A stretch of 62,891 bases of DNA, filler included, from Reclinomonas americana ATCC 50394 (Eukaryota): assembly GCA_048213135.1 (NCBI GenBank). It is 5 parts of 3 records of this genome, joined end to end, with 100 filler letters (N's around TTAATTAATTAA, not from the genome) between each part and the next. Parts side by side here need not be neighbours in the genome. Positions count along the whole stretch, not along the records: positions 1 to 12,944 come from PS015442.1; positions 13,045 to 20,724 come from PS015442.1; positions 20,825 to 43,494 come from PS015442.1; positions 43,595 to 53,205 come from PS015443.1; positions 53,306 to 62,891 come from PS015445.1. One strand, 5' to 3'. Under the pieces are notes generated by a model. The model was not told the DNA's origin, searched no databases, and was given only the letters and a program-made list of their open reading frames with translations. This document shows positions 683 through 61,954 of this stretch, in pieces (within the stretch, counting starts at the first letter, position 1; every line of letters begins with the position of its first letter). Made by a program: the position numbers and the translations under genes.

Positions 683-1916
683 TCACGACATCCCGCACTG
701 AAGCTGTTGTGCCACCGATGGTGACGAATCGGCGAGGTGGTAGCAGAACCTGTGCAGCATGCTTAGCACGACGGCAAGGCAAATGCGCGTGAGTGTGTGT
801 TGCAAACCATTGCATGGCGCACTTGTTTGCCGGCTGCATGGGTCGAACGCCAACTGCGTGAAATGGCGGAGTGTGAGAAGTTGCAACCATAAAGAGAGGA
901 CGAGAGTGTTCTCCGGCGACACACCATGATCATTATAGTTGCAGACCGCACTCCAGCTCTGCTGCAGGTAGCGCAACACGTAAGCGCCCGCCATTTCGCC
1001 GGTGCGATCCATGCCGTGCTCGCAGTGCACGTAGATGAGCAGCGGTTTGGCCGCTGCACTCTGCAACAACGTGCGCAGCGATGCTGTTCGCGACACCAAA
1101 TCGTCGAGCATCCACGACACATTGGCGGAGCGCTGCGCAATCTGCGTCTCCGTGAACTTGCTCGTCGGGCAGTTGTCGGCTGCGCGTGCTCGATCAGCAG
1201 GCAGCAACAAAAGGAAGGGGGCGCACTGCCTGTGTGGTACGATTCGCGCAACTCGTTTCACCCTTGGTCTCCCAGTGCACGTACTGCCCGCGCTCGGGGT
1301 ACTGATCAAAAAACGCCTTCTCAATCGCCGAGTCAATCGGCTCGACCGGATCCTCGTCGCCAATGAGACTGACATCGATCAACAAAAAGTCCTCAGGCAG
1401 CTTGTACGGCGACTCCTTCGCCACTTGAATCGCCGTAAAATTCCTCAACTCATCCCACCCAAAGCAACTGCACAGCGCAGCATGAGAAGCCAGCAAGCCG
1501 CGAGATAAAGAGAGAGAGAGAGAGAGACGAAACTCGGCATAAGGCACTCTACCGCCACAATCGGCAAAGTCCACCTGCGCATGCACAGCAGTGAGCGAGT
1601 GTGTGGCATGAAACGTGAGCAATGAATTAGACGAACAGCGTCATTCCGCGGCTGGTCGCCTGCCCTCACAGTCATGAGTCACATGCACACACACGCGCGC
1701 GCAGACACACGCACCTCGCACAAGAAAATTCCGCCAGCCTTTTCCCGGCGCCTCGAGCGAATCCACCTACAAGTGAGAGAGTGTGAGATCACACACAGTC
1801 ACACACTGAAAGGAGACACGCACATAGTGGATCTTGCTCTGCTTAATGCCGCAGACAGAGAGCGACATGGCTGCGACAAGCACAATGCACACGATGAGCG
1901 CGCGCAGAGATGACAT
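683..1916 (-). CDS. Secreted protein-tyrosine/dual-specificity phosphatase-like protein (7 exons)
   Basis: Spliced model: MSSLRALIVCIVLVAAMSLSVCG (signal-peptide-like), NFLVRGDQP, FLLIDVSL, catalytic loop IYVHCEHGMDRTGE (CX5R), ending WFCYHL...QCGMS*. GT-AG introns keep the frame. Confidence 0.8.
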
Positions 1917-1997
1917 TGTTGTGGACAGTGGACAGAGGCTCGCGGCATGCGTTTGTCATCACCAACAAAACAAACAAACAACAGACGGAAAGTGCGC

Positions 1998-4900
1998 ATG
2001 AGCGCGAGGCTGCGCACCAGCGGCCTGCGGCGGCCTTCATCTGCGGCATCCACTGCAGTGGCAAGTGGTGCGTCTTGTTACTCATAACAAAAGTATGTGC
2101 TTGTTTGTGACTTTGATGGTGATGAATGAATAGGAGCGACGCCGTTTGTGCCGCTGACCACTCCGAATCACGCATCGTCTTCCGGCAACGACGATGCGAC
2201 CAGTGTCGTAGTGCGCGTGAGACCACAGAGTGCAGCTCCGGCTGCGTCACCACTGCTCTCCCCGTCGCCCACACCGCAACAACAACAACAACAACAGTCG
2301 TCGGGGATGTTGGCAGCCGCGGCCGCAGCAGCCGCCGCGCACCACTTTCACCGGCATTCACCCGTGCCTGCGCAGTCGCCTTCTTTGGCTGCTGTGTCGT
2401 CGTCTCTGATTCGTCCGTCGTCGGCGGCACCGGCGTTGGAGCGGCGAAAGTCAGGCAATGCTGCGTCTTTGTCGTTGGCTGTGTCGTCGGCGCATCGTCC
2501 ACTGGAGGGCGTGGCGGCGTCGGAGGCTGGCGCGCGTGAGTTGTCTGCGGCGTCGATGGATTTTGATGATGAGCTGTTGGATGTCGAGGATGATGGTGAC
2601 GAAGATGATGATGATGATGCGGAGGAGGAGAGAGCGGAGGTGCGAGAGCATGTGAGTAGGTTACAGCAGCGGCAGGGTGTGCGGCCTGTGGTGGCCACGG
2701 CCAGTGCCAGTGACAGTGATGGGGAGGCGGAGCGTGCTGGAAGGCGTGTGCCGCGCGGTTCGCCGGAGCGGGTGGTGGTGACGGGGGAGCGGCGAGGGGA
2801 GCAGGAGGCGGTGGGGTTTGCGCCGCGGGCGGCTGTGGCGCCGGCTCATGTGACGCCTTCTGCGGCGGCGGCACCGACCAGCTACCCACCGCGGTCGACG
2901 GCATCGCCATCCGGAGTGGTTCCCTCGTCGGCATCGTCAGCAGCGGCGGCGGCAGCAGGAGCAGCGCCAGGGATGCCATCGTCCCGCTTTCAGGAGCGAA
3001 GGCCGGTGTTGGCGACAGACGTCGGCACATGTCTCGGTGAGGGTCGATGGTTGTGGGAAGATAGGGGAGAAACACAAGCTGATGGTTTCTCGTGCAGGTG
3101 ATTTTGACATGCTGAGTGAGATTGGGCGCGGTACCTACGGGACCGTGTACAAGGTCCGCTCGCGCCGTGACAAGCGCATTTACGTGGCCAAGCAGATCGT
3201 GCTTCGCAATATGAAGCCGACTCGGCGTCAGAAGGCCCTCTCGGAAGTTACGTCTCTGCAGGTCCGCTGGCTGCTGCTCATTGTTTTCTCATTCCCCGAC
3301 TCGCTGCAGGCTCTGTTGCTGCGCGACATTGATCACCCGAACATTGTGCGCTACTACTCGTCGTTTATGGACAACGACTCACTGTACATTATCATGGAGG
3401 TGAGGGAAACGTGCACTCGTATTTTACTTTCTCCGGATATGCGCTGACTGCTTGATTTTTTGCGTCGCAATTGCTCAGTACGCGGAGCGCGGCGACTTGC
3501 ACCGCCTGTACAAACGACACAAGAAGAAGCACGCGTATTTTTCCGAGAGATTACTGTGGAAGCTGGCCAGTGAGCTGGCGTCGGCGCTGGTCTACTTGCA
3601 CGACCAGCACATTATCCATCGCGATCTCAAGTGTCTCAATGTTTTTCTCACGGCCGACAAGCGAGTCAAGGTGCGTCTACTTGCGGCACATACATGTCTG
3701 TGCCTCTGTGCATGTGCGTGCGTTCCAACATCAATGCGGGCAGATTGGCGACCTTGGCGTGTCTCGTATTGTGGGAGAGGACGAATTTTTGCACACGCAA
3801 GCCGGCACACCGGCCTTCTTTGCTCCGGAGCAAGTACGCAAGAAACCGTACGACTACAAGGTCGATGTGTGGGGCTACGGCTGCCTGCTGTACCAGCTGG
3901 CAGCGTTGCACCCGCCATTTGAGGTGCGTTTAGCGGGGGAAGATGGAATTTCTCTCTCTCTCCATGCAACTGACGTGGGTCACTCGTGTAGGGCACCAAC
4001 GTTTTCGATCTGGCCAGCAACATTGTACACAAATCACCAGCGCCACTCTCCAATCACTACTCATCACGATTCCGTGCTTTCCTCGGTACACTGCTGGAGA
4101 AGGTGCCGGATAAGAGACCAGGTGTGTGTTTCTCCTTTTTTCTCGTCGGCTTCTATTTTCTTTTCCTCGGCGTTTGACTCTTGTGGCAGCCATGCGCGAT
4201 GCGTGCTCGTTGATACCTCCAGAACTGGCACCGCACCTCCCGAACGACATGTCACGACACGCCACCGAGACGTTCTCCTCGTCCACCGTTGCCTCGACCG
4301 AGGACTCGGTGCGTCCACCTCGATGTTTTCTTACTGTGTCTGGGGGAAGGTGTTTCTCAACTTCCTTGTCACTGTAGGTTCGCTTGGTCAGTGTTGGGCA
4401 GTCACCGGCAGCGCAGCCCGACAATCAGCGCCAGTCCCGCGCCTCGCGCCCGAGTCAGCCGATCCGCAGCCGCAGTGCTGGCTCCATTCCGGTGATTGCC
4501 GAGGCGGCTGTTGCAGCAGCAGCGGCGGCAGCGGCGGCGGGAGACGCACGAGTGTTGCGTTCCTACAACGTGGAACGACGCGACTTCTTTGTGTGTCTGA
4601 CACCTTCGTGCGTGTAGGTTGTCGCCCCCAATCTCCCGCCCGCTGACAAGTCGACCGACCGCGGGCAACGATTCCGACGGCGCGCATGCAGTGGTGCGTC
4701 CTGTTTTGTCGGCGGGTCAAACGCCTCGCGTCGCCAGCGGTCTGCAGCACCAGCAGCGCATTGTCGGTGCCGCGGCCTCGGGTGGCACGCCTGCCTCGGT
4801 GAGTCACGCGTGTTTATGTGCGTTTTACATGAAGCGTGTTGTGACTCACCAGGGTTTGCGCGTGCGCGCTAACAGGATCAGGTGCACGGATCGAGTCGGC

Positions 4901-6066: not shown

Positions 6067-8078
6067 ATGGCAACGGCCTCTCCTTCCTCCTCCTCGTCCA
6101 CCACAGGAGGCACTCTGTGGAGTGTGGACTCGCCCGAGGCGCGCTTCTGGGAACGCGATCTGGCCTCCTCTATTGGTCGCACCAATCAGTACGCGGCCGA
6201 TCGCCTCGTCATGCTGCGTGAGAAGGAACGATCAGGAGTTGCGTGGATACACACACACACACACACAGAAAGAGAGAGGGCGACGCACACACACATGCGC
6301 ACACACTCTTCTCACGCGATTCTGTGATTCCTTCCCTCTTAATCACTCTCTGGCAGATGTTGCGTCGATCCTCGGCGTACTATGAGATGCGATCACGAGT
6401 GTGTGCGTTTGCCAAGATGAAGCGCGATGAGCGACTTCGCAGTTGCGTGTGATGCTCTCACAGTGTCTATCTCTTTGTCACTGCACACTGAATCATCCGC
6501 GTTGTGTTAGAGCTCTCACAGCAGCATCGGCGAGTGGGCAGTGGCGGAGGAGGAGGAGGACTGCACGAGAACACTGCGGAGCTGTCGTACTCGTCGCCAC
6601 AGAAGCTAAAGAGTGCGGCTGCGGGTGGTGGGGCCAGTGGCTCGGGAAGGCGCATCAGTTATGATCGCAAGCGCACTGAGGTTTGCTGGTGTTCGTGTGC
6701 TGCGTGGCGCGCGGAAACCGCGCCTGACACACCCAGCGGCGATTGTTGTGGTTGTTGTTGTTGGCAGAGCTTCAGCTCGTTCACCGACTTTAGTGTGTCG
6801 TCGATTGGTGGCTTTGACGGAACGTTGCGTGCGGCGGGCGTGTACATGTACGTGGAGGTGCGCGATGGATGCTGATCTTGTTGGCGTGCAGTGAGGGCGA
6901 TTCGGATAACAGCAACAGCGAGGGCGGCCTCGGCGATGCTGACACGCCGCCGACCGAGCAGTACGCCTTTCAGGGTATCTTCCAGATCTATGACTTTGAT
7001 GCGCCACATGCTGGTTCGTCGCGGTTGTGGTTCGCGCGATCCATTGTCAATGCCTCACAGAGCAATCGCAAACAGGGACGACGGTTCNNNNNNNNNNNNN
7101 NNNNNNNNNNNNNNNNNNNNNNNNNNNNNNNNNNNNNNNNNNNNNNNNNNNNNNNNNNNNNNNNNNNNNNNNNNNNNNNNNNNNNNNNNNNNNNNNNNNN
7201 NNNNNNNNNNNNNNNNNNNNNNNNNNNNNNNNNNNNNNNNNNNNNNNNNNNNNNNNNNNNNNNNNNNNNNNNNNNNNNNNNNNNNNNNNNNNNNNNNNNN
7301 NNNNNNNNNNNNNNNNNNNNNNNNNNNNNNNNNNNNNNNNNNNNNNNNNNNNNNNNNNNNNNNNNNNNNNNNNNNNNNNNNNNNNNNNNNNNNNNNNNNN
7401 NNNNNNNNNNNNNNNNNNNNNNNNNNNNNNNNNNNNNNNNNNNNNNNNNNNNNNNNNNNNNNNNNNNNNNNNNNNNNNNNNNNNNNNNNNNNNNNNNNNN
7501 NNNNNNNNNNNNNNNNNNNNNNNNNNNNNNNNNNNNNNNNNNNNNNNNNNNNNNNNNNNNNNNNNNNNNNNNNNNNNNNNNNNNNNNNNNNNNNNNNNNN
7601 NNNNNNNNNNNNNNNNNNNNNNNNNNNNNNNNNNNNNNNNNNNNNNNNNNNNNNNNNNNNNNNNNNNNNNNNNNNNNNNNNNNNNNNNNNNNNNNNNNNN
7701 NNNNNNNNNNNNNNNNNNNNNNNNNNNNNNNNNNNNNNNNNNNNNNNNNNNNNNNNNNNNNNNNNNNNNNNNNNNNNNNNNNNNNNNNNNNNNNNNNNNN
7801 NNNNNNNNNNNNNNNNNNNNNNNNNNNNNNNNNNNNNNNNNNNNNNNNNNNNNNNNNNNNNNNNNNNNNNNNNNNNNNNNNNNNNNNNNNNNNNNNNNNN
7901 NNNNNNNNNNNNNNNNNNNNNNNNNNNNNNNNNNNNNNNNNNNNNNNNNNNNNNNNNNNNNNNNNNNNNNNNNNNNNNNNNNNNNNNNNNNNNNNNNNNN
8001 NNNNNNNNNNNNNNNNNNNNNNNNNNNNNNNNNNNNNNNNNNNNNNNNNNNNNNNNNNNNNNNNNNNNNNNNNNNNNN

Positions 8079-12944: not shown

Positions 12945-12988
12945 NNNNNNNNNNNNNNNNNNNNNNNNNNNNNNNNNNNNNNNNNNNN

Positions 12989-13000
12989 TTAATTAATTAA
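12989..13000. other. Artificial scaffold linker TTAATTAATTAA (also at 20769-20780, 43539-43550, 53250-53261)
   Basis: The same palindromic six-frame-stop 12-mer sits between N runs four times, and genes on either side are truncated. Confidence 0.95.
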
Positions 13001-13044
13001 NNNNNNNNNNNNNNNNNNNNNNNNNNNNNNNNNNNNNNNNNNNN

Positions 13045-18098: not shown

Positions 18099-19483
18099 NN
18101 NNNNNNNNNNNNNNNNNNNNNNNNNNNNNNNNNNNNNNNNNNNNNNNNNNNNNNNNNNNNNNNNNNNNNNNNNNNNNNNNNNNNNNNNNNNNNNNNNNNN
18201 NNNNNNNNNNNNNNNNNNNNNNNNNNNNNNNNNNNNNNNNNNNNNNNNNNNNNNNNNNNNNNNNNNNNNNNNNNNNNNNNNNNNNNNNNNNNNNNNNNNN
18301 NNNNNNNNNNNNNNNNNNNNNNNNNNNNNNNNNNNNNNNNNNNNNNNNNNNNNNNNNNNNNNNNNNNNNNNNNNNNNNNACAGTTCGTGGCCGACATTGA
18401 CGCCATCATTGCGAGACTACACGAGATTCGTGAGAACGCCCTTGACTCCATCACCAAGGACACGAAGCGTGTGGTCAGCTCGTGCAACTGTTGCGTCTCG
18501 CTGTCTTTCCAAGCAACGTCAAAAAATGCACGTGCCAACTTCTGTTCCCTCTCGCAGCCTTGCAGCAGCGTATGAACGAGACCGTGAATTCTACCGGCAC
18601 CGTGCTGCGCTCCCTGCTGCGCGGCCTGGAGCGTGTGCCGCAGGGTGCACTCAGTGCCGACGGTGACGAGCTGCTGGCCATGCGGACTGGCGTGTTTGGC
18701 ATGGAGGCGGCCGCCGAGGAGCCGGGCGTGAGCCTGCCGGTGTTCTTCCAGGAGGTGGAGGCGAGCTGGAATGCTGCTGAGCAGTGCCTGCACCAGTGCC
18801 GCTGCATCAAGGACACGGCCGAGTCGGATGACACGACCCAGCCGAACTCGGCGGTGGCGTTTGTGGCGGGCATCAAGGGTGGGTGGGGAAGGGAGAAGGG
18901 GGGGGGGGGGGAGGGGAGGGAGGGGGGGAGAGGGGGAAGGGAGGCGAAGGAGAAGGAGAAACGGGAGGGGGAGGCTGAGTGCATGATCTGTAAGCGGAAG
19001 TGAGAGTAGAAGTGAGAGTGTGTGTGTGAGAGAATGAGAAGGGAGGACGAGGGCTGAGTGCATGATCCGTGAGTGGAAGTGAGTGCAGAAAGGAGAAGGG
19101 GAAGGGGTGAGGAGTGCCTGTATGCTCCGTGAGTGTAAGTGAGAGTAGAAGGGAGTGTGTGTGTGAGAGTGAGAAGGGAGCACGACGGCTGAGTGCACGA
19201 TCCGTGAGTGGAAGGGGTGAGGGGTGCGTGTATGATTGAGAGAGAATGAAGAGAGCGTGTGTACGTGTGTGTGAGAAGGAGGGAGAGAACAGCACTTGCT
19301 GATGGTGATGTGCACAGACCAACTGGAGCGATACAAGCCGGCAGTGTCGGTCGGATTCTTGGTACGTCGTTGTCTTTTGAATTGTGCGTTACGCAAACTG
19401 GCTGTGCTCACCCACAATGGCATCTGCAGTACGGCACCACTGGCTACGAGGAAGACGACGACTTTACCAACTACGACTACTGA
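16831..19483 (+). CDS. RING + B-box + coiled-coil (TRIM/RBCC-like) E3 ligase
   Basis: RING CIIC...PKCALEHPYCLPC...RCLLC; B-box CEVHQKPLAYFD....LYCADC....YEVVPLKEAL; then a long heptad-rich helix. Stop at 19481-19483. Confidence 0.8.
18972..19215 (+). repeat. Intronic degenerate minisatellite (core GAGTGCATGATCCGTGAGTGGAAG, about 4 copies)
   Basis: The core recurs near 18977, 19056, 19113 and 19191, separated by GA/GT-rich spacers. Confidence 0.75.
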
Positions 19484-43494: not shown

Positions 43495-43593
43495 NNNNNN
43501 NNNNNNNNNNNNNNNNNNNNNNNNNNNNNNNNNNNNNNTTAATTAATTAANNNNNNNNNNNNNNNNNNNNNNNNNNNNNNNNNNNNNNNNNNN

Positions 43594-44686
43594 NCGCACT
43601 GCTGCCGCACCTCGGACTCGCTCGTGATGTGACCACCATGTCGGTACGTGTTCGTTCATGCCGTGTGCTTCGCGATCGATGCAGGCGGCTGAGATTGCAT
43701 GCGACAGGTGCACGAGGTTCGCGACATTCTCGCCGCCCTGCAGCACATGGACGACGGCATCAACTCCATCTACATGAATGCAATTGGCATTGACCTGGCC
43801 GCTTGTGCGTACGTTTTCGTAGTTTGTCGTCGTCTCACCTACTCATCCCATGATGGCTGCACGTGCCGACAGCATGTGCCTGGCTGCGCGATCCCTCTCT
43901 CGATCGTCTCCTCTGTACGGTGCTGGCCGGTGTCCCCGTGCGTGCCCGCCGTGTGGGCGATCGACGAGCTCACCGTGGCGGTGGCGGCGGTCACAGCCAC
44001 CATCAGTCCATGCCAGCAAAGCGGGTGAGTGTCTGTTGTCATACTCTCTTTGCCGTACTCTGCGCTTCTCAACACAATGGCCCGACAGTTTGCCGACGTC
44101 ACCACGACGGCGGCGGCCACTCCCACCGATACCGATTTTGCGCTGTCGTCCATGTCTGCCAGCGATGTGCTGGCTCATCACGACAGTTCTCCAGAGATGC
44201 GAGTGCGCACTGGGCCCGGACGGTACGCCTCGTTCTCGTCGCGCCTCGCCGCAACAGTTGCGTGATTCGAAACGCGGTCGGTGCTACCACTTGCTGAGTT
44301 GTTGTCTTGTGGGAACAGCCGGTCGACGAGATCGCACCCGAGGAGGAATCAGATGCCACGCAGCGGAGCACCACTGTGCGCTCGCTCTTCTCCGACACGA
44401 CCGCCACCCCGCTTACCGCAGTGTCACGGTACACGGCCGAAGATGTGGAGTTGGCAGCCTTTCATGCGGCACAAGAGCGTTTCGTCTCCGACATGCATTG
44501 CAGCCCGGCGACAACCACGACAGTGTCCACTAATTTCCCTCGAACAGAGAGACGCAATCTCGGCTCCGTGGCCACTCAGCTGATGGAACAACTGAAACAG
44601 CGTGACAAGACCATCTTGGATCTGAGCGACGAAAACAGACGGCTGCGCGAGGAAGTGGCACATTTGCGCGCCCGCCTCCACTCATA
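43594..44686 (+). CDS. Hypothetical protein, 3' fragment with C-terminal coiled coil
   Basis: Exons VHEVRDILAALQHM..., ...SSRLAAT|PVDEIAPEEE...QLKQRDKTILDLSDENRRLREEVAHLRARLHS*. Confidence 0.6.
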
Positions 44687-45028: not shown

Positions 45029-45547
45029 AGTCGCAACTCTTGTTGGAGGAGCGAAACGAGACAGGAGTTTAGCAAAAAAGTACAATACCATGCCTGTGAT
45101 TATTATCGAATTCCGCATTATGCACGATGATGATATTAGTTAGTTACGTGTTGNNNNNNNNNNNNNNNNNNNNNNNNNNNNNNNNNNNNNNNNNNNNNNN
45201 NNNNNNNNNNNNNNNNNNNNNNNNNNNNNNNNNNNNNNNNNNNNNNNNNNNNNNNNNNNNNNNNNNNNNNNNNNNNNNNNNNNNNNNNNNNNNNNNNNNN
45301 NNNNNNNNNNNNNNNNNNNNNNNNNNNNNNNNNNNNNNNNNNNNNNNNNNNNNNNNNNNNNNNNNNNNNNNNNNNNNNNNNNNNNNNNNNNNNNNNNNNN
45401 NNNNNNNNNNNNNNNNNNNNNNNNNNNNNNNNNNNNNNNNNNNNNNNNNNNNNNNNNNNNNNNNNNNNNNNNNNNNNNNNNNNNNNNNNNTTTCTCCTTC
45501 CTTCCCTCCCTCCTGTAACGCTGACTGGTTCTTCCTTCCGTTTGCAG

Positions 45548-47306: not shown

Positions 47307-48004
47307 GTTGCGTTTTTTTGGGGGGCGAGTGCTCGATTGTGTANNNNNNNNNNNNNNNNNNNNNNNNNNNNNNNNNNNNNNNNNNNNNNNNNNNNNNNNN
47401 NNNNNNNNNNNNNNNNNNNNNNNNNNNNNNNNNNNNNNNNNNNNNNNNNNNNNNNNNNNNNNNNNNNNNNNNNNNNNNNNNNNNNNNNNNNNNNNNNNNN
47501 NNNNNNNNNNNNNNNNNNNNNNNNNNNNNNNNNNNNNNNNNNNNNNNNNNNNNNNNNNNNNNNNNNNNNNNNNNNNNNNNNNNNNNNNNNNNNNNNNNNN
47601 NNNNNNNNNNNNNNNNNNNNNNNNNNNNNNNNNNNNNNNNNNNNNNNNNNNNNNNNNNNNNNNNNNNNNNNNNNNNNNNNNNNNNNNNNNNNNNNNNNNN
47701 NNNNNNNNNNNNNNNNNNNNNNNNNNNNNNNNNNNNNNNNNNNNNNNNNNNNNNNNNNNNNNNNNNNNNNNNNNNNNNNNNNNNNNNNNNNNNNNNNNNN
47801 NNNNNNNNNNNNNNNNNNNNNNNNNNNNNNNNNNNNNNNNNNNNNNNNNNNNNNNNNNNNNNNNNNNNNNNNNNNNNNNNNNNNNNNNNNNNNNNNNNNN
47901 NNNNNNNNNNNNNNNNNNNNNNNNNNNNNNNNNNNNNNNNNNNNNNNNNNNNNNNNNNNNNNNNNNNNNNNNNGAGAGAGAGAGCGAATCATGCGACCAC
48001 GCAC

Positions 48005-48860
48005 CGACTTGAACAGCGGATGCAGCCAGTCCTCGCCGAGGCCATACGGAATACCCGTGTGAACGACATGCGAGCGCACATTGTCGCGACGCGGGCGCTT
48101 GTGCACCAGCTTCTCAATCTGCGAGCATGGAGAGACAAAGAGAGAGCTCAGTGGGACAGGCTGCGTAAACAAAATAACACGGCAACCGAGACACACACGC
48201 AACATCGACAATGTGCTGGTAGGCGGGATTGGTGCGGCGCTTCACCGCCAGATCCTCCGTGAACGTCTCGTCAGGGTTGTCGGGATCACGAGGCACACGA
48301 TCCCACGACATGACACTGCTGCGCACAATCAGCGTCTTGTGATCCATGAACTCGGCGTTGCGCAAGACTGTGTCCCACATGAGAAAAACTGATTTGAGAT
48401 CGCCACAAACACACACTTTATCCAACGCAACAGTTGACGCATTTCAGCGTCTCCTCTGGCCTCTCCAGCACATCATAGATGATAATGTTGGCCTCCAGCC
48501 ACGCCGCCCACAGCGCCTCGTCACTGCTTCCATCCTACACGCACACAAAACAAACCAGATGAACATGGTGTTCAACTCACTCTCTCCTCAGTCACAAGTC
48601 AACGCAACAATGAAACGCGTCACATGCGACAGCACACTGGGACTTCCAGAGCCCGCAGGCGCAGCATCAGAGGACGACGAACCAGCCGCAGCCGCAACAG
48701 CCGCAGCAGCCGCCTCCATCACAGCCGCAGTGGGCGGTGCCGTGGCCAGCGACTCGACATTGACCGTGCCAAACACCTCAATGCCCTGGTCCGCCAGCAG
48801 CTTGCTCAAGTGCCGACCCAGAAACGTGTCACACGGCGACAAAAACGCTTTCTTCACCAT
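48005..48860 (-). CDS. AK7: Adenylate kinase 7, N-terminal exons (NAD-binding-like domain) on an inverted contig
   Basis: MVKKAFLSPCDTFLGRHLSK, IIIYDV, SSVMSW, FTEDLAVKRRTNPAY, GIPYGLGEDWLHPLFKS. The phase-0 donor fits the AWHQ.. acceptor at 45548. Confidence 0.85.
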
Positions 48861-49277: not shown

Positions 49278-52200
49278 ATGAAGCGGAGGCGACGATCGCG
49301 TTCTGCGACCAACGACGGCGATGGCGAGGATGATGATGGCGATGCGCCTCCTCCACCTCCGCCTCCTCCAGCAATGATGCAGGTGGATGATGCCAATGAC
49401 GCGGATGAGGAGGATGAGGACGATGACAATGACGACTCCAAGGCGGCGGCGGCGATGACGACGACGACGACGACGACGACGCGGTTGAGAGCGTTGACGC
49501 AGGAGCTGTTGAGCAGTGGCAAGGCGGTGACAATGGCGGCGCAGAGTGCGCTGTCGGTGGTGGGGGGCGCGGCAAAGGGTGGTGGTGAGGAGGATCCAGT
49601 CGAGGCGTTTGCGTACAGGATGGCGCGCAATAAGCATGGCTTTGCGCGGGTGGCGGAGGCGAGCGCGGCGCGCATTGTAAAGTGCGTTTGTGGTGTTGTG
49701 TGTGTGTGTGTTTGTAGATGTGCATCTGCACGTCCGACACCCCACTCTCTCTTCTCTTCCTCGCACACTCTCGCTCACCCGAGCACGCGTACACACATAG
49801 TATCGAGTGTGCTCTCCTTCTCGTACCTCCCTCTTCTCTTTGTATGCATGTTCGATTGAGTCCTCGCTCTCTCTCTCACACACTCGCTCTCTCTCCCACA
49901 CCCGCACGCACAGGATACTGAGCAAGCTGCATGGAACCTACGTGGGCGGGCGTGCACCGGCCACGCAGGCCGAGTGGACCGACAATATGGAGCCCGTGGT
50001 TGACTTGCTCGACAATTTGTACGAGATTGTAGTTGCGTGGTCGAACATCACAGCCACCATCAGCTGTCGCAGTCCACTCACGTTGTGTGGCGTCGTGCAG
50101 GACACGGCGTTGGATGAGGCGCAAGGGAAGCGCAAGACCGGCAAGGGTGAGAAAGCGACGTCGGCTGCCTCGTCGACGACCACCTCACAGAAGAAGAAGC
50201 TGGGCATGGACGACCTGCGTCGCCCGGTTCTGCTGCGGCCGCAGCTGCGATGGGGCGACGTTGACAACGCCATGACGCTGTTCGCACCGAAACTCAAGAC
50301 CAAGCCGAATGCGTTGTTGTCGCTGGAGGAGACGTACGCGCAGGGCGGAGTGACCGACACACCTGACGGTCCCGCACCCGCTGCGCTGGCCAGTGTGGAG
50401 GAGTATGCGCGATCGCTTGGTGCTGTGTCGTCAGCATCGTCCGCGTCGGCGTCTCCAATGGTGGCGGGCGGGCGGAGACAGTGCGTCTCGCTGTTGCTTC
50501 TTCTGTTTATTGGTTTTTCGCACGCGAGTTGCTGAGTCGTCTTGTCGCTGTGCAGATTCCCGCACCCGTACGGACCAGAGCTGAAAGCGCTCGACTTCAC
50601 CGACGAGAGGCATCTGACTGCCACCCGTGAGCAACTGTTCCGCAAGGTCGAGGAGACCGAGTGCCAGTGGGTGTCCACGCGAGATGAGCTCGAAACCATG
50701 GCCGCAATATTGGATGGGGAGAGCGAGATCGCCATTGACTTGGAGGTTTGTAATGTCCATGAAGTCTCTCTCATGGTCGCATGTCGAATGTGCTCATCGC
50801 CTTGGTCTCTACAGCACCACAATTTCCGCTCCTTCACCGGTTTCCTGTGCCTCATGCAAGTCTCCACGCGGACGCAAGACTTTTTGGTGGACACGCTCGA
50901 GCTGCGCGAAGACTTGCACATTCTCAACTCGTCGTTCACAAACCCCAACATCGTCAAGGTGTGTAGCGCTTCTGTATTGAAGGCATGGTGGCAGTCATCA
51001 TTGTGCTCACATGCCAGCGTGTGGATCAGGTGCTGCACGGTGCACAGTCCGACGTGATCTGGCTGCAGCGCGATCTGGGCCTGTACCTTGTCAACATGTT
51101 TGACACGGGCCAGGCAGCTCGTATTCTCGGTGAGTCCCTCGCACGAGGAGTGCGTGCGCAGAGCTCACTGTTGGCTGACGCACTTGTGGCATGCAGAGTT
51201 TCCGAGTTTCGGCCTCGCCTTCCTGCTGAGTCACTACTGCGGTGTCGTGGCCAACAAGAAGTATCAGAAGGCCGACTGGAGAATACGGTGCGATTTTTCG
51301 TGTGTGAGACTGTGCATTGACCCACATCACATCACTCTTATTCTTTGCGTTGAAACAATGACAGACCGCTGCCGCAAGAAATGATTCGCTACGCCCGCGA
51401 GGACACGCACTATCTGCTGTATGTGTACGACCGCTTGCGTGCGTCGCTGGCGCAACAGGGCCAGCAGCGCGGTATGGGCGCGGAGCTGTTGCGCCAAGTG
51501 TGGATCAAGTCGCGAGACATTTGCCTGCAAACATTCCAGCCCGACATCTTCACCGAGGACTCGTACATGAACCTGCTCGAGAAGCTCGGTGGTCGTCGAC
51601 TGCGACAGGAGCAAATCAACATCTTCCGAGCACTGTTCAAGTGGCGCGACTTTGTCGCTCGCTTGGAGGACGAGTCAACGAGCTACGTGCTGCCGAATCT
51701 GTTGCTCATGCGGATAGCCGAGGAGGTACCGCATGACGTGGACCGATTGTGTGCCGTGGCCAAGCCCATTCCTCCGCTGCTGCAACGCTACAAGCATGTT
51801 GTGATGCAAATCATACAACAGGCACTGCAAGAGAACGTTGCGTGGCGACGTGCTTGTGTGTGCGAGTGTCACGCGTGATGTCGTGCTGACCGAGGATGTA
51901 CGCAGTTTGACTTTGCGGATCAGTTCGAGGCCATTCGCTCGATGAGCCATGGTACAGCTCGATTTGCATTCAATTTCTTTCTCGTTGTGTCTGACTGTTT
52001 GTTTCTGCAGGCGACAAGGCCAGTGGTGCGGGTGCAGGATCGTCTGCTGGTGCCACGGCGACGACGACAACCACCACCACAACAACAACAACAGCGACAG
52101 CAGCCGCCAGTGCACCATTGTCGGCATCGGCTGGATCTGCTGCTGCAGTGGTAGGTGGAGCTCGTAATGGATCACGAGCGCGCACTGCCGCGGCATCCAT

Positions 52201-53205: not shown

Positions 53206-54301
53206 NNNNNNNNNNNNNNNNNNNNNNNNNNNNNNNNNNNNNNNNNNNNTTAATTAATTAANNNNNNNNNNNNNNNNNNNNNNNNNNNNNNNNNNNNNNN
53301 NNNNNGGTCAGTTCAAAATGCATCTCGAGAATTTTCGACACGTGCCAGCAAAACCCATTTTTTTCGCGCCTCACTGGTCGCCCGTCGACGTGGCGCAGTG
53401 CATAATGTGCGCCACATGGCGGTGAAGCTGGCAAGCTGTCACGAAGACGATGCGACCGATCTGTTGTTGAGAAAAAATCGGGACACTGTCCAGCAAATCG
53501 TCTGAAAACGGACAGAAATCTTCCGTTTCACTCGCGCAGCTCCCGCTGATTGTCACCAGTGGACAGACTGGACCTCAGTTTGAAGCGCAGGAGCTGGTGA
53601 ACGAGATGACATGCGGCCTGCCGCCAGCTAGCCAGCAGAACTTGAGAAACATGTGACGCACTCAACGGTCGTCCGTAACCGAAAAAAACGCGTGCCATCG
53701 TCTGCGTGTGTGAGAGAGTCTCCCTGATGCCTGTCGTTGGCGAGAAGGCTGTGGCGAGAGCCGTCATCGTCTATCTGACTGATACCCCGAAGAGCGGGTG
53801 GAAAACGATCGCAAGGCGGCGCAGCGTCAACATTTCCACGAAACGAGCGATTTCGAGATTTTCTTCGACTCAAGCACGATCTGTTGGACTGCTTTTCTTG
53901 GCCCAGGTTCATTTTTTTCGTCTTCTCGACGCAGGAGTGTGATCTTCGCGAGATGCGGATTCCGAATACACCCGTATACACCCGGTGCACAGGCACTCGT
54001 TCAGGAGCTGCGGGTCACGCAAGATTGGGTGTCAAAAATCGACCATTTTTTGGCTGCTTTGGTCGTCCAACGGTCATTATTTTTCTCATTGCCTGTGCAT
54101 TTTTGCTGCGCCGCTTCGCCGCCACTTTGTAGTGCAGCAAGTAAGGTACCATAATACACCCCATCACACCCCCCAGAAGAGACCGGAATGGGGTGAAAAA
54201 AGCGGTCGCGAGCTGAAAACCCGCGAAAAGGGTGTATTTTCCGCTCCGACATTGCGCTGCGAACACACATTGTATTGGCACAAGCGGCTCCAGACACTCT
54301 C

Positions 54302-57300
54302 ATGAGCCACGACGACGGCTTCGAGGACCCCTGTGCACTACAAGAGGATCGCAGACCTAGTCTACAGGTGCCTTGACACACGCACACACACACACTCTCT
54401 CTTTCTCTGCTCCTCGGAGGAATTCTGTTTGTTGAGCTCACACACACATTGACATAGGTCTGTGTGGGCTCCGTGCCGCAAGCCTCTCCCGTCACCACAC
54501 ACTTTGTGTCACGCGAGGAGGAGGAGGAGGAGGCACACGAGAAGACGATGATACCTGCTCATCCGCCAGTCATTGATCATCAGCCTGACAGCGACGATGA
54601 TGATGCGGAAGAGGAGGAAGATGATGAGGNNNNNNNNNNNNNNNNNNNNNNNNNNNNNNNNNNNNNNNNNNNNNNNNNNNNNNNNNNNNNNNNNNNNNNN
54701 NNNNNNNNNNNNNNNNNNNNNNNNNNNNNNNNNNNNNNNNNNNNNNNNNNNNNNNNNNNNNNNNNNNNNNNNNNNNNNNNNNNNNNNNNNNNNNNNNNNN
54801 NNNNNNNNNNNNNNNNNNNNNNNNNNNNNNNNNNNNNNNNNNNNNNNNNNNNNNNNNNNNNNNNNNNNNNNNNNNNNNNNNNNNNNNNNNNNNNNNNNNN
54901 NNNNNNNNNNNNNNNNNNNNNNNNNNNNNNNNNNNNNNNNNNNNNNNNNNNNNNNNNNNNNNNNNNNNNNNNNNNNNNNNNNNNNNNNNNGGCTGGAGAT
55001 GCTGTCGGATGGAACGCTGCACTTTTACCGAAGTCCCGACAAGCAAGTGTGCACTGGTTGGTCGTTCTGCTGCTGCTGCGCACGCCAGTCTCTGCTCGCG
55101 TCACCCTCATTCCTCCCCCCTTTCCAGCCACCATGCACCTCCGCGACATGGTGCTGTTCCCTGCAGGCAACAAGCCGCACCTTATCAAATTCCGCCACAA
55201 GCAGGGCGAGCAGGAGAGTCGGAGTAAGCGGCTGACTTTTGATCGGCAGGAGGACCTGGATCAGTGGCGTGAGGCACTCGCTCACACCAAGCAATTGTGC
55301 GCGTGAGCGTTGTTGTCGGTGCCTAATTTGTGTCGTCGCTGACATGACCCTTGACACCACAGAGTGGACACGGGTGATCCGCCATCGCTGCGCATGATGC
55401 GCGTGTCGGACGGGCACCTGTCGGTCTCCGTGTGGTCCGCACAAAACCTCAAATCGTGCGCTCGCCGGCCGTATGTGGTGCTCGCCTACGGTGGTCTCCA
55501 GAAGCACACGGATACCAGCGAGGGTGTGTCGCCGCAGTGGCGCGAGGAGTTTGATTTGTTGCGTTTTTGTGTGCGANNNNNNNNNNNNNNNNNNNNNNNN
55601 NNNNNNNNNNNNNNNNNNNNNNNNNNNNNNNNNNNNNNNNNNNNNNNNNNNNNNNNNNNNNNNNNNNNNNNNNNNNNNNNNNNNNNNNNNNNNNNNNNNN
55701 NNNNNNNNNNNNNNNNNNNNNNNNNNNNNNNNNNNNNNNNNNNNNNNNNNNNNNNNNNNNNNNNNNNNNNNNNNNNNNNNNNNNNNNNNNNNNNNNNNNN
55801 NNNNNNNNNNNNNNNNNNNNNNNNNNNNNNNNNNNNNNNNNNNNNNNNNNNNNNNNNNNNNNNNNNNNNNNNNNNNNNNNNNNNNNNNNNNNNNNNNNNN
55901 NNNNNNNNNNNNNNNNNNNNNNNNNNNNNNNNNNNNNNNNNNNNNNNNNNNNNNNNNNNNNNNNNNNNNNNNNNNNNNNNNNNNNNNNNNNNNNNNNNNN
56001 NNNNNNNNNNNNNNNNNNNNNNNNNNNNNNNNNNNNNNNNNNNNNNNNNNNNNNNNNNNNNNNNNNNNNNNNNNNNNNNNNNNNNNNNNNNNNNNNNNNN
56101 NNNNNNNNNNNNNNNNNNNNNNNNNNNNNNNNNNNNNNNNNNNNNNNNNNNNNNNNNNNNNNNNNNNNNNNNNNNNNNNNNNNNNNNNNNNNNNNNNNNN
56201 NNNNNNNNNNNNNNNNNNNNNNNNNNNNNNNNNNNNNNNNNNNNNNNNNNNNNNNNNNNNNNNNNNNNNNNNNNNNNNNNNNNNNNNNNNNNNNNNNNNN
56301 NNNNNNNNNNNNNNNNNNNNNNNNNNNNNNNNNNNNNNNNNNNNNNNNNNNNNNNNNNNNNNNNNNNNNNNNNNNNNNNNNNNNNNNNNNNNNNNNNNNN
56401 NNNNNNNNNNNNNNNNNNNNNNNNNNNNNNNNNNNNNNNNNNNNNNNNNNNNNNNNNNNNNNNNNNNNNNNNNNNNNNNNNNNNNNNNNNNNNNNNNNNN
56501 NNNNNNNNNNNNNNNNNNNNNNNNNNNNNNNNNNNNNNNNNNNNNNNNNNNNNNNNNNNNNNNNNGGGAGAAGAGTGGTGCGTCGTCGCTGACACGCTGT
56601 GCATGCAGTCCGGTGTCGGTGTTGCCAGCAGAGTTGCACGTGACGGTGTGGGACGCGGTGAAACCACTGCAAGAGAATCACGTCTTTCTCGGGTACACGC
56701 GGTACAATGTTGCCGAGTTGCTCGAGAATCCTGGTGCACAAGCGCGGCAGTTCCCGCTGGGCACCAGCAAGCCGCGCGACAGTGCTGTCGGGACCCTCTC
56801 CCTCAGTCTGACGCTGAATTTTGCACATGTGAGTCCTCCTTTTGTTCTCGTTTGGTGCATTTGCTGACCTGATTGTGTGCACAGTTGTACACTACGCCCG
56901 TGCCGGAGACGTCGTTCTTTGGCAGTCCTCTCGCGCGAGTCATGCAGCGCTCCGACCACACACGACACTCGTTGCCGGTACCCTTGAAGCGCGCCCTGCT
57001 GTGCATCCGTTCACAAGGTGCGCGCAACAGCTGTGTGGCCGCGTGAGTTGATGGTTGAGCTGAACAGAGTTGTATCCGACTCGGCAGGGTTGAATTTCGA
57101 TGGCGTCTTCCGTGTCAGTGGCCTCCGCTCTCGTCTCGACACACTAAAGATGCGATTCGATCGCGGCGAGGACATCCACCTGCTCAGCCAGTCGGAGGTC
57201 GACATTCCCACCGTGGCCAGTCTCATCAAGCTGTACTTCCGCGAGCTGCCAGAACCGATCGTGACATTCGATCAGTATCGCAAGGCGGTGCACATTGGTG

Positions 57301-58817
57301 GTGCGTCTCCTTCTCTCCTTTCTGTGCATTCGCTGTGCATTCGTGGACTCACGCGCGCGCGCGCGGGCGGACTGATGCAGAGCTTCCGGAGCACACGGAT
57401 GCGGCGACGATTGTTGGTGTTCTGCGAGAGTTGATCCACTCATTACCACCCATCAACATTCACCTGCTGCGCTGCACCTGTGCGCTGATGATGGAGGTGG
57501 CCGAGCACAGTGCGACAAATCGCATGCCACTCCAAAACCTCTCGATTGGTGCGTATCGCTGCGATAAAAGTCAGCACTCTCTCTCTCCCCTCTGCTCACA
57601 CACCGCACCGGGGACAGTGTTCGGGCCGGCTTTTTGCCGCAGCATGAGTGACTCACTGGAGACGGCACTCAGCGACACGAATTCCGCCAACCGGTGTGTG
57701 GCGCTGATTTTGCGACACTTTTCCGACCTGTTTGGCGTTGCGTTTTCATCTGCTCGTGTATGAAACGAGGAGCGCAATCGCTGACTTGACTGCGCATTGA
57801 CAGGACCACCGCTCCATTCTCGACATGATTGCCGGTGGTGAGTTTGGTGACTAGCTTCATTGAGTTCGCATCCAACTCACTTGCCGCTTCACAGAACCGG
57901 ACGATCCCATTGTGCCACAGCGACCACCACCAGCCGACCAGGACCTGTCGTTGTGGAACGTGCCTGTGTCCTCGTTCTCGTTGCTGCCACTGCCCGGAAT
58001 GCCGCGTGTGGAATCGGAACCGGCGCCGGTGGCGGCAGAGCCCTCACCAGTTCAGGCAGTGGTGGATGTCGACGTGCACCACGACGACGATGCAGCAGTA
58101 GCAGTAGCTGCGGCGCCACCACCTGACGACTCTTCCAGCGACCATGCACTCCATGAGCCGGCTCCAGTGCCTGTGGATGATGATGTTGACGACAAAGGCG
58201 ACGTCGATGATGCAGGTGGCGCAGACGATGTAGACCACGCCGCAGCGGGTGAGGCAGGCGACGAAATCATTGACGACGACGGCGAGAATGGCGATGGTGC
58301 ATGGACGGACTCGGGCAGCGAATCCGAGTCGTCGCCGTCGCCGCCACCACCGCCGCCAGCCGATGACGATGCCGTCAGCGACGATGATGCCTACGGTCGT
58401 GGTGCTGTTGACGAAAACGTAGAGCCGGCCGCTGCCGTTGGCGACAGCGAGTCATCGACTGCAGCGGCGGACGAGCCGGCAGCTGTGGTGGACGACGAAA
58501 GAAGGCCCGAGTCGATGGGCAGCCTGACGGCGGAGCTTGGCTCCGCGGGTGATCTCCTCGATGCCGCCGGTGCCTTCTCGCCCGTGTCTTCCGGATCTCC
58601 GTCATCGTCGCCATCGTCGTCGGCAAGTGGTGGCGGTCGCGAACGTGCGCCCACCGACATGCTGTCGATTCGAGCACGAACAATGGCCGCCGCCTTCCGT
58701 TCCGGTAGTGTTCCCGGTGCCACCATCGCCGCCATGTTTGCTTCCACCCTTGTCACATCCCCCAAGAACGTCGACGGCGACGACGAGGAGGATGAGAAGA
58801 AGAAGAAGAAACCATAA
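54302..58817 (+). CDS. RhoGAP with PH and C2 domains and an acidic low-complexity tail (two gaps)
   Basis: PH GTLHFY...DLDQWREAL; C2 LSVSVWSAQNL..RPYVVL...SPQWREEF...LHVTVWD; GAP FFGSPL, GLNFDGVFRVSG, VASLIKLYFRELPEP, NRMPLQNLSIVFGP. Confidence 0.9.
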
Positions 58818-58898
58818 AAACGTCGACCCCATCTTCGTCCTGCATCTCATCCATCGATCTTCTTGTTGTTGTGTTGTTGAGCACGAGTAGAGAAAGCC

Positions 58899-59773
58899 AT
58901 GTTCTACTTGGTGAGTCTGTCTCTGCCTCCACAGCACGCCAGTCGCACACCACGACGAGCTCACCTTGATCGCACACACAGCTCAAGCTGAAGAGGCGCA
59001 TTCAGTTGCAACCAAAGGAACTTGGTCGCGAGATCGCCGACAAGATCAGACGAGCACTCATTCGCGAGGTTCGTGAGAGAGAGAAAACACACGCACGCAT
59101 GTCGAGTTGAATTTCGATCTCTCTGCAGGTGGAAGGCACATGTGACCAGAATGGATACATCATTGCGTTGCTGGAGATCACACACACGGGTGCCGGCAAG
59201 ATCGACGAGCTCTCCGGTGCGGTGTCTTTCCAAGTCGAGTATCAGGCGCTCATCTTCAGACCCGAGAAGGGTGAAGTGTGCGACGGCGTGTGTCTGTCTG
59301 TGTCACAGGTGCGGTGTCTCGCCGCCCTTCCTTTCTCCCCCCCTCACGCGCGTGTGCTCATCTTCTGAGTCACCACACGCGCACACAGCATGCCATCATC
59401 GTGCAGGTCGGGCCTGCGCAGGTGTTGGTGCCGCCGCAAGTTGTGGATTGACATTGATCGACTCCTTTTCGTGTCTGTGGCCTGCTGACGCACTTCCTTC
59501 TCTCTCTTTCTCTGTTCCCCACAGATGATTCCCGAGGAGATGAAGTTTGACAACTCGCAGACGCCCATGTTTGCCAACGAGGATCGCTCACTGAAGATCA
59601 CACGCGGCACCGAGCTGCGCATTCAGATTTTCGGCACCAAGTTCATGGGCACTAGCATTGTTGCGTGTCGACTGTCAGGTTGTGCTTTGTGTTTTCGGGG
59701 GCTGATGCAGGCTGTCCATGCGCAGAACGCACTGGGATCCATTCAGGGTGACTACTTGGGTCCAATCGGGTGA
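58899..59773 (+). CDS. RPB7: RNA polymerase II subunit RPB7
   Basis: Exons 58899-58910, 58982-59068, 59129-59308, 59389-59439, 59525-59659 and 59726-59773 give 170 aa: VEGTC..NGYII, FRPEKGEV.DG, GP, ALGSIQGDYLG. Confidence 0.93.
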
Positions 59774-59834
59774 GGTGTGGGAGGGGAGCAGCGAGAGCAG
59801 CACGAGAGGCAATGTACACTCGCGTGGCTTGTCG

Positions 59835-61954
59835 TTATCCGTCAATCAGCTGCTCGATTCTTCGCTCTCGTGCCGCCATGTCTTTTCTCTTGTCGACATC
59901 TCGGAAGTATCTTTCCGTCACGTGTTCCACAGCCGAGGTGAATACCCGTGCCGCATTCTGTCGCAGCTGCTGTCGCGGGGAGAGGTGAGTTGGCGACTGC
60001 GACAGTGGCGGTGGCGACGCCGTGTCTGGGCGATGCGGTGCCTCGGTGGCGTCGCCCGAGTTCTCCTGCGCCTGGAGGTGCGTCCACACCTCGAGGAGCT
60101 GCCGCTCCGACTCTTTCAGCGCCACATCCACCAGTACGGGCTGAGGAACGAGCAATTCTGCGCGGACGGGGCAATGAGTAATGGGTGCGCCGCAGTGACG
60201 GATATCACACGCTGACCAACCCGCAGCACTCGGCCAGTGTGTGGACATGCGCGGTGAGAGGCGAGGAGACGCCCGATGGGTGCGTGGCGAGTGGGGAGAG
60301 CGTGGAGACTGCGGGGCACGCGCGGACATGGGTTGCGGCGCCGACTCCAAGCGAGCCGACACCAACTCAGCATTTTCCTGCAAAGCAAACAAACTGTGAG
60401 CTGAGAAAAGCAAACAAGAAGCGATCGAAAGCAGAGCCGACCTTGACTTTGACGACCGCGGCCAAGTTCTCCAGCGACTCGCGTTGCTCAACCGACTGCG
60501 GCCGGCTGTCGTCGTCACTCAGCTTGTGCACCGTCGTGAGCGTCTGTCGCTCAATGCCCACTTGCAGAGCCTCGAGCTTGGAGCGCAAATGTGCCGACCA
60601 CTGTGACGCAACCGCAGCAGCAGCAGTATGGGAGTGTGAGTGAGTGCACGAACGGTGACGAGTTCTTCACAAAAGAGGATGCGCACGTTTTGCGGGAGTG
60701 CCGCGTCTGGTCCTCCCACTGCACCCGCCGGTCCGAGCAATCGCAGATTGGTGGCACCTGGCGGAGGCGTTGGTACGGGCGTGGTGGCTGCCGACTGTGG
60801 CAAGCGTCAGAAGCCGCGATGGACGTGAGCAGAGTGAGAGACGCACGCACGCAACTGCACGCTGTGCTCGTGCACTATTCAGTCGACTGGCAGGCACCGA
60901 CGGCAGCGACGGCGTGAGCGACATGGCCGACAGGGAGCCGGAGGGGTGGGGAGGTTCGTTTCCAGTGGCGTTGGCAGCTGTGCATGCGCGTCAGTCGTTG
61001 TGTGTTTCCCAACCGCTCGCGAAAGCAGAAACTCACCTCCAGTGTCGCCCCCTGGCTGCGCCGCATCGCCACCGGCAGAGTCGACCAGTGCCGGGCTCGG
61101 CTGCTCACGCGAGCGCACCTCTGGCGGAATTCTGCATCGCCCCCCACTGATCAGTCTCATGGCCAACAACAAGTAAAGCGAACGAGCAACGCACAATGTC
61201 GGCATGGTCAGCGGCACCTTTGCAGGCGACTTGGGTCTCTTTCTCGGCGTAATCACTGCCACGGAGGCGACAAGAGTGAGCAGCACTGCTCAAACACAAC
61301 ACACACTCACAGAGAGAAGAGAGTGCGCATCGCAACTCTCACGCTCCTGATCGCGATACATCATGTCGGCCGCAGCCTCGGCCAGCAACGTATTGCGTGG
61401 CTCCAGCTCCGACGCACGCGCAAAGCACCGGTGTGCCTCGCGGTACTGATACGACCGAGCATACGCCTGTGTGCACAGAGTGAGGGGAAAGGAGTGATTG
61501 CGTGATCAGTGTGTCACACGAGTGTGCTGACCTCGCCTCCCAACACCCAGCCCTCCACATCGTACGGAAGCAGACGCATCATGTTCTCGGCATCGAGACG
61601 CGCCGAACCCGACAGGCCCAGCTTGAGATACGAACGTGCCCTCAGGCTCAACAGAAAACCATCAGCGGGCTCCACCACCAAACCCTGTCATCATCAAATG
61701 GCGAATGCGTGTGTGTGTGTGTGTGAGAAAGAGAGAGAGGTAGAGGAGAATGCGTGTGAGAGAGTGGCACCTTGGTGGCGAGGTCGGCCGCCTGTTGGTA
61801 CTGCCCGCGCTCAAACAAATCAATGGCGCGTTGCGACAGCTGCTCGTGCTCACTGGCCGCTTTCCTGTAAACACCAGCCAGTCAAGTCACTCACTCACTC
61901 ACTACGCCACACTCTCTCTTTCACACACAGGCACACGGACCTGCGCGAGGCCAT
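59835..61954 (-). CDS. TPR-domain protein with low-complexity/coiled C-terminal part
   Basis: AIDLFERGQYQQAADLATKGLVVEP....LSLRARSYLKLG...ARLDAENMMRLLP, YREAHRCFARASELEPRN. Exons stay in phase to IEQLIDG*. Confidence 0.75.

Follow-up and report, generated by a model that had tools for sequence, protein, structure and literature searches.

In the textbook account of pre-mRNA splicing, the G paired to the U6 ACAGA box lies five bases downstream of the cut at the 5' splice site, and pairing registers of U1 other than the standard one are rare. Shifted and bulged U1 registers have been proven for rare human sites (PMC4856993), the 'shifted register' having been described by Roca and Krainer (reference 10 of PMC4856993). 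According to the same source, validated noncanonical U1 registers of every kind add up to 1.5% of 201,541 human 5' splice sites, and 68 human sites are predicted to use the bulge +2/+3 register (Table 3 of PMC4856993). That U1 can pair in a shifted register, with the cleavage point settled later by U5 and U6, is likewise established at rare human sites (PMC4856993, PMC11162779). With regard to U6, PMC11162779 reports that no alternative register had previously been described and that the distance from the cut to the downstream G:C pair had always been five bases, and presents one case at four. Two major classes of 5' splice site are distinguished, the U5-type AG//GU and the U6-type //GURAG (PMC9803359, PMC11732430). 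Here we analysed a stretch of 62,891 bases of DNA from Reclinomonas americana ATCC 50394 (assembly GCA_048213135.1; the whole stretch is called the window below), in which a second class of introns, the GTT class, starts with GTTGCGT or a close relative and has its conserved G at +6, next to ordinary introns with G at +5. The class exists and is frequent, its donors keep reading frames and protein collinearity intact, and its exon profile is shifted relative to that of the ordinary introns.

The GTT class resembles the mammalian +1 shifted-register sites in its GUU start, in a downstream consensus that is displaced by one base, in a U1 that would pair one position off and in a cut that is still made at GU. 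Unlike those sites, which are rare, it consists of one rigid heptamer in approximately 20% of introns, its displaced block is GCGU and not AAGU-like, and the G at -1 is absent. With the human bulge +2/+3 sites it shares an extra U that separates GU from the paired block at +3 to +6, but the human sites keep the pairing of the -1 G, whereas here a G at -1 is found in 0/26 introns and the extra base is only ever T. The tandem donor of STAT3 (PMC11162779) offers a parallel for U6, as the cut there is not at the standard distance from the G:C pair formed with the ACAGA box; in STAT3, however, the spacing is reduced by one base (G at +4) and concerns a single gene, while here it is predicted to be increased by one base (G at +6) in a fifth of introns. 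As with the U5-type and U6-type classes, exon-side information is traded against intron-side information, and the window also contains AG|GT donors with a weak intron side, but those two classes share a single register with G at +5 and the GTT class has its G at +6. Diplonemid introns were considered as a further counterpart and rejected, as their donors read G/GTATG or lack GT-AG altogether (PMC12621601). The first-pass annotation of this DNA had known of no such major class elsewhere, and the full-text literature, with subscription papers and supplements outside the scope of the search, likewise yielded only primers and unrelated uses of the motif; a genome paper could have noted the class already. 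The GTT class represents a genuine variant, used frequently here, of a mechanism that is known but rare, and the new element here is the shift in exon profile, with a G at -1 in 41/47 ordinary introns vs 0/26 of the class.

The first-pass annotation had listed 30 donors of this kind, and all 30 do begin with GT followed by T and are spread, as claimed, over all five pieces from which the window is joined. The heptamers at these positions are GTTGCGT (22 sites), GTTGCGC and GTTACGT (two each), and GTTGCGA, GTTGAGT, GTTGTGG and GTTTCGT (one each), and the base preceding the donor G is A in 12, T in 11, C in 7 and G in none. Counted on both strands there are 33 copies of GTTGCGT in the window, compared with 14.49 +/- 3.80 in 100 dinucleotide shuffles (z ~4.9), and 0/100 shuffles reached 33, the highest shuffled count being 26. 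The hexamer TTGCGT preceded by A, C or T is present in 9, 13 and 10 copies, respectively. The copies of GTTGCGT are also strand-biased, with 3 antisense vs approximately 26 sense copies. Eleven copies were absent from the original list: three are antisense to predicted exons, one lies in a sense exon, one is a parsed donor (30762, plus strand), two lie within predicted sense introns and the remaining four are outside predicted genes. Intron-like sequence follows GTTGCGT at 8221 (minus strand) and at 12789, 42291, 62219 and 34750 (plus strand), all located outside gene models or in a dubious long predicted intron, and these copies may be further members of the class.

Introns were predicted with our own gene parser, an exon-chaining dynamic program which combines codon log-odds with a prior on length and accepts every GT as donor and every AG as acceptor. 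Unsupervised codon training on long open reading frames (ORFs) collapsed onto microsatellites, and the codon model was therefore seeded with five hand-read exons of the NEK gene described below. Starting from a uniform donor score with a re-estimated heptamer table, the parser returned 112 introns with GTTGCGT as the commonest donor heptamer (20 introns) and recovered 23/30 of the listed sites, which rose to 25/30 once the donor model had two profiles and contained exon columns. Since a heptamer table favours rigid motifs, the parse was repeated with motif-blind donor scoring in which every GT was equal; GTT[GA][CA]G, present at 114 sites of the window, then accounted for 19 of 112 introns, and GTG[CA]GT for 20. 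Forbidding GTT[GA][CA]G cost the parse 36.4 nats, similar to the 34.6 nats for forbidding GTG[CA]GT, whereas the cost was 0-1.7 nats for GTC[GA][CA]G (174 sites), GTA[GA][CA]G (44 sites), GTG[GA][CA]G (260 sites) and GTT[CT][CA]G (75 sites). The ban on GTC.. or GTA.. donors cost the parse nothing, hence T alone serves as the extra base. The refined two-profile parse predicted 152 introns, of which 110 have G at +5, 30 (20%) belong to the GTT class and 12 are others; this agrees with the earlier rough count of about one intron in five, the 20% being an estimate because the parser makes mistakes. The earlier proposal that these donors are needed to maintain the reading frame was borne out for 25/30 sites in the refined parse, while of the five sites that it missed, those at 27685, 47307 and 55558 abut N gaps and those at 3247 and 37167 were shown to be introns by homology.

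Junctions were fixed independently of the parse by protein collinearity, either by searching with single exons and comparing residue numbers, or by aligning spliced models with homologues using MAFFT. The gene names proposed earlier proved correct, these being a NEK2-like kinase, PEROXIN-4 (PEX4, E 1.3e-25), EXOSC10/RRP6, RPB7 and adenylate kinase 7 (AK7). Six junctions were exact to the residue (NEK 3247, RPB7 59440 and 59660, EXOSC10/RRP6 50032, AK7 48203 and 48431) and the PEX4 junction at 37167 was placed to within one residue, and none of the junctions tested by homology contradicted a GTT donor. In the NEK gene, residues 1-49 of exon 2 correspond to residues 7-55 of NEK2 chain 2w5a_A and residue 3 of exon 3 to residue 58, so that the intron with donor GTTACGT (3247..3309, plus strand, 63 nucleotides (nt)) sits at 55|56 without an indel; the parser had read through this intron because it is in frame and contains no stop. 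For RPB7, residue 58 of exon 3 corresponds to RPB7 residue 92, exon 4 encodes 17 amino acids, residues 2 and 40 of the 45-amino acid exon 5 correspond to residues 113 and 152, and the last exon adds 15 amino acids and the stop, with residue 172 as the end of the model, matching the human chain in length. The donors of both its class introns (59440..59524, GTTGTGG, 85 nt, and 59660..59725, GTTGCGT, 66 nt, both plus strand) are thereby exact. No match was obtained in the PDB for the ORF of 55 codons preceding 59440, as the exon comprises only the last 17 codons of that ORF.

The EXOSC10/RRP6 gene has two class introns of 69 nt with donor GTTGCGT on the plus strand. At the first (50032..50100) the junction EIV|DTALDEAQG in the N-terminal domain is free of gaps against 10/10 homologues, while there is no usable homology past the second (51837..51905), which comes from the parse; the alignments of tblastn with EXOSC10 homologues extended through short open introns and left exon limits undefined. 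In AK7, three class introns with donor GTTGCGT lie on the minus strand. The junction of the intron at 48119..48203 (85 nt) falls within a block that is free of gaps in 20/20 AK7 homologues, and that of the intron at 48368..48431 (64 nt) is collinear with the homologues except for those bearing a two-residue insert. The third, at 48535..48608 (74 nt), is predicted by the parse and has its junction in a variable region where homology is not decisive. A word-index homologue search with two of the AK7 exons gave no match, and an exhaustive HMMER search recovered the AK7 relatives. The AK7 gene is split by the gap at 47344-47973, with its N-terminal part at 47975-48860 on the minus strand and the rest at 45491-47343 on the plus strand, which is most simply explained by a mis-oriented contig inside the scaffold.

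The PEX4 gene (minus strand) required an additional exon. The exon before the donor at 37167 stops three residues past HPNV, with its residue 117 corresponding to residue 81 of 4gpr_A and residue 79 of 8upf_L, and the next long exon begins at residue 92 of 4gpr_A, residue 90 of 8upf_L and residue 95 of Arabidopsis PEROXIN-4. A microexon of 24 nt (37061-37084), which encodes TGEICLDV with the active-site Cys, is needed to bridge the UBC residues between them, and supplies eight residues where UBE2D3 and 4gpr_A have seven. It is flanked by the class intron (37085..37167, GTTGCGC, 83 nt), supported by homology and ending in an AAG acceptor and not in YAG, and by an ordinary intron with donor GTGAGT (37003-37060).

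We next compared 26 GTT-class introns with 47 ordinary introns with G at +5 and 22 others, in a set of 95 introns drawn from the 112 parsed introns plus the hand-added 3247, 59440, 31141 and 1533, filtered for a length of 45-130 nt and a YAG acceptor, and built without any exon information. The class donor has G at +4 in 24/26, C at +5 in 22/26, G at +6 in 26/26 (by definition of the class) and T at +7 in 21/26, and its information from +1 to +7 amounts to 2, 2, 2, 1.61, 1.26, 2 and 1.03 bits, compared with 2, 2, 0.51, 0.16, 2 and 0.64 bits for the ordinary donor. Beyond the donor the two kinds of intron are closely similar. All parsed class introns start with GT and end with AG, the acceptors in the YAG-filtered set being CAG in 24/26 and TAG in 2/26. 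Median length is 69 nt in both, a G is present at -4 before YAG in 19/26 class and 32/47 ordinary introns, and the branch motifs CTGAC and CTGAT are found in both, a strict YTRAY being present in 12/26 of the class, at a median of 16 nt from the 3' site, and in 18/47 of the ordinary introns, at 19 nt. The base composition of the intron interior is alike, and the phases 0/1/2 are represented by 11/6/9 class and 26/11/10 ordinary introns. The common length, acceptor, branch motif and composition suggest that both kinds are ordinary U2-type introns, with no sign of a branch-site system peculiar to the class. The acceptor consensus reads GCAG, with a purine before YAG in 26/26 class and 46/47 ordinary introns and no marked pyrimidine tract.

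Class and ordinary introns are intermixed in the same genes, but in the predicted models class introns adjoin each other more often than expected by chance, with 12 adjacent pairs vs 5.0 expected (p = 0.0006). Examples are 6238/6442, 29849/29584/29387, 48608/48431/48203, 39904/40205 and 59440/59660; clustering of class introns at the level of genes was not significant (p = 0.20). An origin of the class as an introner or mobile-intron family was considered and rejected, as the interiors show no extra similarity within the class: the mean local alignment score over 400 random pairs each was 8.0 for class-class, 7.6 for ordinary-ordinary and 7.8 for mixed pairs. Among the ordinary introns there are also many donors with a weak intron side and a pyrimidine at +3 (5068, 23987, 39412, 61531 on the minus strand, and others), which read AG|GTCAGC, AG|GTCAGT, AG|GTTTG. 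or, in RPB7, GAG|GTTCGT. As these donors keep both G+5 and G-1, these two positions are the main determinants of the ordinary donor.

The clearest difference between the two kinds of intron lies in the exon. In the 95-intron set the last exon base is G in 41/47 ordinary and 0/26 class introns (Fisher p = 2e-14), while approximately 10.3 class introns would be expected to have a G at -1 from coding composition (P(0) = 2.8e-6). In the refined parse, position -2 of ordinary introns is itself poor in G (8/104), and the class -1 position resembles the ordinary -2 position (p = 0.40) and the class -2 position the ordinary -3 position (p = 0.86). The first-pass annotation had left open whether the register is shifted or bulged; its assignment of the class to ordinary GT-AG introns stands, and between the two registers the absence of the -1 G (0/26) and the restriction of the extra base to T favour the shift, with NN|GUUGCGU read like NNG|GUGCGU. 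On balance, and with somewhat more belief than doubt, we take these to be genuine U2-type GT-AG introns which are spliced by the same machinery as their neighbours, but with the 5' splice site read one base out of register.

As to which RNAs pair with these sites, and how, we infer the following scheme. When the ordinary NNG|GUGCGU and the class NN|GUUGCGU are aligned on UGCGU, they differ in a single column, G vs U, and what is usually the exon-final G would become the first base of the intron, moving cleavage one base upstream with the intron still starting with GU. U1, or a variant of U1, would pair in a +1-shifted register, with G+1 in the slot of the -1 G and U+3 in the slot of U+2, and the GU itself might then fix the cleavage point. 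The ACAGA helix of U6 would lie six and not five bases from the cut, on G+6 and U+7.

Several observations weigh against the shifted reading. The p values for the class and ordinary exon profiles are partly circular, because the donor model held exon positions. Against a generic U1 5' end, not that of this organism, the class donor is predicted to pair with -1.4 kcal/mol at best and -0.4 kcal/mol for full shifted pairing, compared with -7.8 kcal/mol for GUGCGU and -12.2 kcal/mol for GUGAGU as ordinary donors. The preference for C at class +5 (22/26, vs 17/47 at ordinary +4, p = 7e-5) is not explained by generic U1 or U6 pairing. A U6 helix displaced by +1 is without precedent, the sole alternative U6 register in PMC11162779 being the -1 case. 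The parser is our own and errs, as the 'other' donors include places where an obvious GTGAGT was skipped, and the sample covers only 56 kb of non-N sequence.

Weak pairing to the generic U1 end and the unexplained C at +5 are what would be expected if the class had a recognition RNA of its own, i.e. a U1 paralogue or a U1/U11-like small nuclear RNA (snRNA) whose 5' end complements GUUGCGU in full, for example by an A replacing the U1 C that pairs with G+1, which would create a separate type of 5' site with common branch and 3' sites. This is possible, but we consider it clearly less probable than a shifted reading by the same machinery as the neighbouring introns. The near-invariant heptamer, much more rigid than the ordinary donor, the lack of any contribution from the exon side and the adjacency of class introns (12 pairs vs 5.0) all point in the same direction, while the higher constraint could also simply make up for the single mismatch and for the pairs lost on the exon side, and a GC-rich genome may favour C. 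Put at its strongest, this organism might possess 5' splice sites of a third kind, with a U1-like reader of their own and a U6 helix six bases from the scissile bond, which serve a fifth of introns together with the ordinary branch and 3' machinery, a proposal that we offer tentatively. Pairing in the normal register with a bulge at +2/+3, where pairing involves G+1, one of the two Us and, in the place of the ordinary +3 to +6, GCGU, with the second U looped out, has been validated experimentally at rare human sites (PMC4856993), equals the shifted register in its number of base pairs, and could plausibly make use of positionally degenerate UU bulges. With a bulge, however, the -1 position is free to pair, and a G there is worth approximately 4 kcal/mol with the generic U1 end, yet G is found at that position in 0/26 and 0/30 sites vs 41/47 ordinary introns; as a -1 G never occurs in the class, this runs counter to the expectation for a bulge, itself inferred from the pairing scheme. 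A bulge should also tolerate A, C and G at +3, whereas banning the 174 GTC.. and 44 GTA.. sites left the parse unaffected, and we consider the bulge unlikely.

An artefact of the gene models or of the sequence was also weighed, in which the true donors are ordinary sites nearby, or in which an extra T or a G-to-T change has been introduced as an assembly error. The assembly is fragmentary with many gaps, each GTTGCGT holds a second GT five bases in, and the parser errs elsewhere, as seen in its 'other' donors. Six junctions are nevertheless residue-exact with the GTT donor, and the second GT within the motif, preceded by C at -1, lies out of frame (+5). If the true sequence were GGTGCGT, an exon base would be added and all verified frames would be broken, whereas a T inserted into GTGCGT would leave the -1 G as in ordinary donors, which is never seen. 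Together with the enrichment (z ~4.9) and strand bias of GTTGCGT, this makes an artefact very improbable, and such an explanation is already largely refuted. U12-type introns have the donor RTATCCTT and a rigid TCCTTAAC-like branch site near the 3' end. A divergent, U12-like minor-spliceosome class would share with them the long rigid motif on the intron side and the absence of an exon-side contribution, but the class motif is unlike RTATCCTT, phase 0 is not depleted (phases 11/6/9), and the branch motif, its distance to the 3' site, the acceptor and the length are indistinguishable from those of ordinary introns. No rigid TCCTTAAC-like branch site was found, the branch and acceptor regions of the class being the same as those of the ordinary introns in the 95-intron set, and we regard a U12-like origin as the least probable of all these explanations.

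One intron in five in this DNA breaks both the rule on cutting distance and the rule on U1 register, and does so with a single rigid motif. The class would provide a natural system for studying how the cleavage point is set after U1 has left, how much slack there is in the helix between U6 and the 5' splice site, and whether snRNA variants can create new intron classes. If the class does have its own reader, runs of class introns within genes would permit separate regulation. There is also a practical side, as gene finders with one donor profile will mis-model approximately a fifth of introns here; our own parser read through or mis-joined class sites until the class was permitted.

The other class introns on the plus strand predicted by the parse have the donor GTTGCGT at 4554..4617 (64 nt), 6238..6356 (119 nt), 6824..6891 (68 nt), 18490..18557 (68 nt), 34332..34390 (59 nt, with the downstream exon running into a gap), 36145..36210 (66 nt), 39904..39978 (75 nt, with a low coding score nearby), 44257..44318 (62 nt) and 57737..57803 (67 nt), the donor GTTGAGT at 31141..31199 (59 nt) and the donor GTTGCGC at 40205..40274 (70 nt). 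A further GTTGCGT donor at 6442..6448 has an uncertain acceptor, with an intron of 69, 80 or 108 nt depending on the parse. Those on the minus strand, also from the parse, are found at 29329..29387 (GTTGCGT, 59 nt), 29508..29584 (GTTGCGT, 77 nt), 29771..29849 (GTTACGT, 79 nt, in a gene for a CCHC zinc-knuckle protein), 60795..60855 (GTTGCGT, 61 nt in the refined parse and 68 or 255 nt in others) and 61256..61336 (GTTGCGA, 81 nt or alternatively 51 nt). Two more come from the model only, at 1468..1533 (minus strand, variant donor GTTTCGT, 66 nt, phase 2) and at 30762..30827 (plus strand, GTTGCGT, 66 nt), the latter being additional to those listed in the first-pass annotation. The GTTGCGT copies at 27685..27691, 47307..47313 and 55558..55564 (plus strand) are putative donors that adjoin N gaps. 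The predicted donors at 1533 (minus strand) and 44479 (plus strand) share the sequence GTTTCGTCTC, in which the class motif varies by a T at +4. Other candidates supported by the model only are located at 1252 (minus strand, GTTGCGC), 27159 (GTTGAGA), 30069 (minus strand, GTTGAGA) and 51984 (GTTGTGT), and the predicted donor at 6359 is doubtful.

The window is a concatenated pseudo-molecule, joined from its five pieces by identical artificial spacers (N44-TTAATTAATTAA-N44) at 12945-13044, 20725-20824, 43495-43594 and 53206-53305, and neighbouring pieces are therefore not necessarily neighbours in the genome. It contains 56,326 non-N bases with a G+C content of 58.5% and many internal gaps, and represents DNA of an intron-rich eukaryote with very short introns, the genes of which are only 49-60% identical to their top protein matches. 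A Pfam search with 130 of the 404 ORFs of at least 85 amino acids gave matches in just 6/130, the low number being due to the shortness of the exons. An Rfam scan of the window at gathering thresholds returned no RNA-family matches, and no snRNA was found within it, while a metagenome scan for relatives returned a single unrelated AT-rich contig of 1.3 kb. Finally, di- and trinucleotide microsatellites such as (GA)n, (GT)n, (CAG)n and (GGT)n are very abundant, both in introns and in exons, where they encode homopolymeric amino-acid runs.

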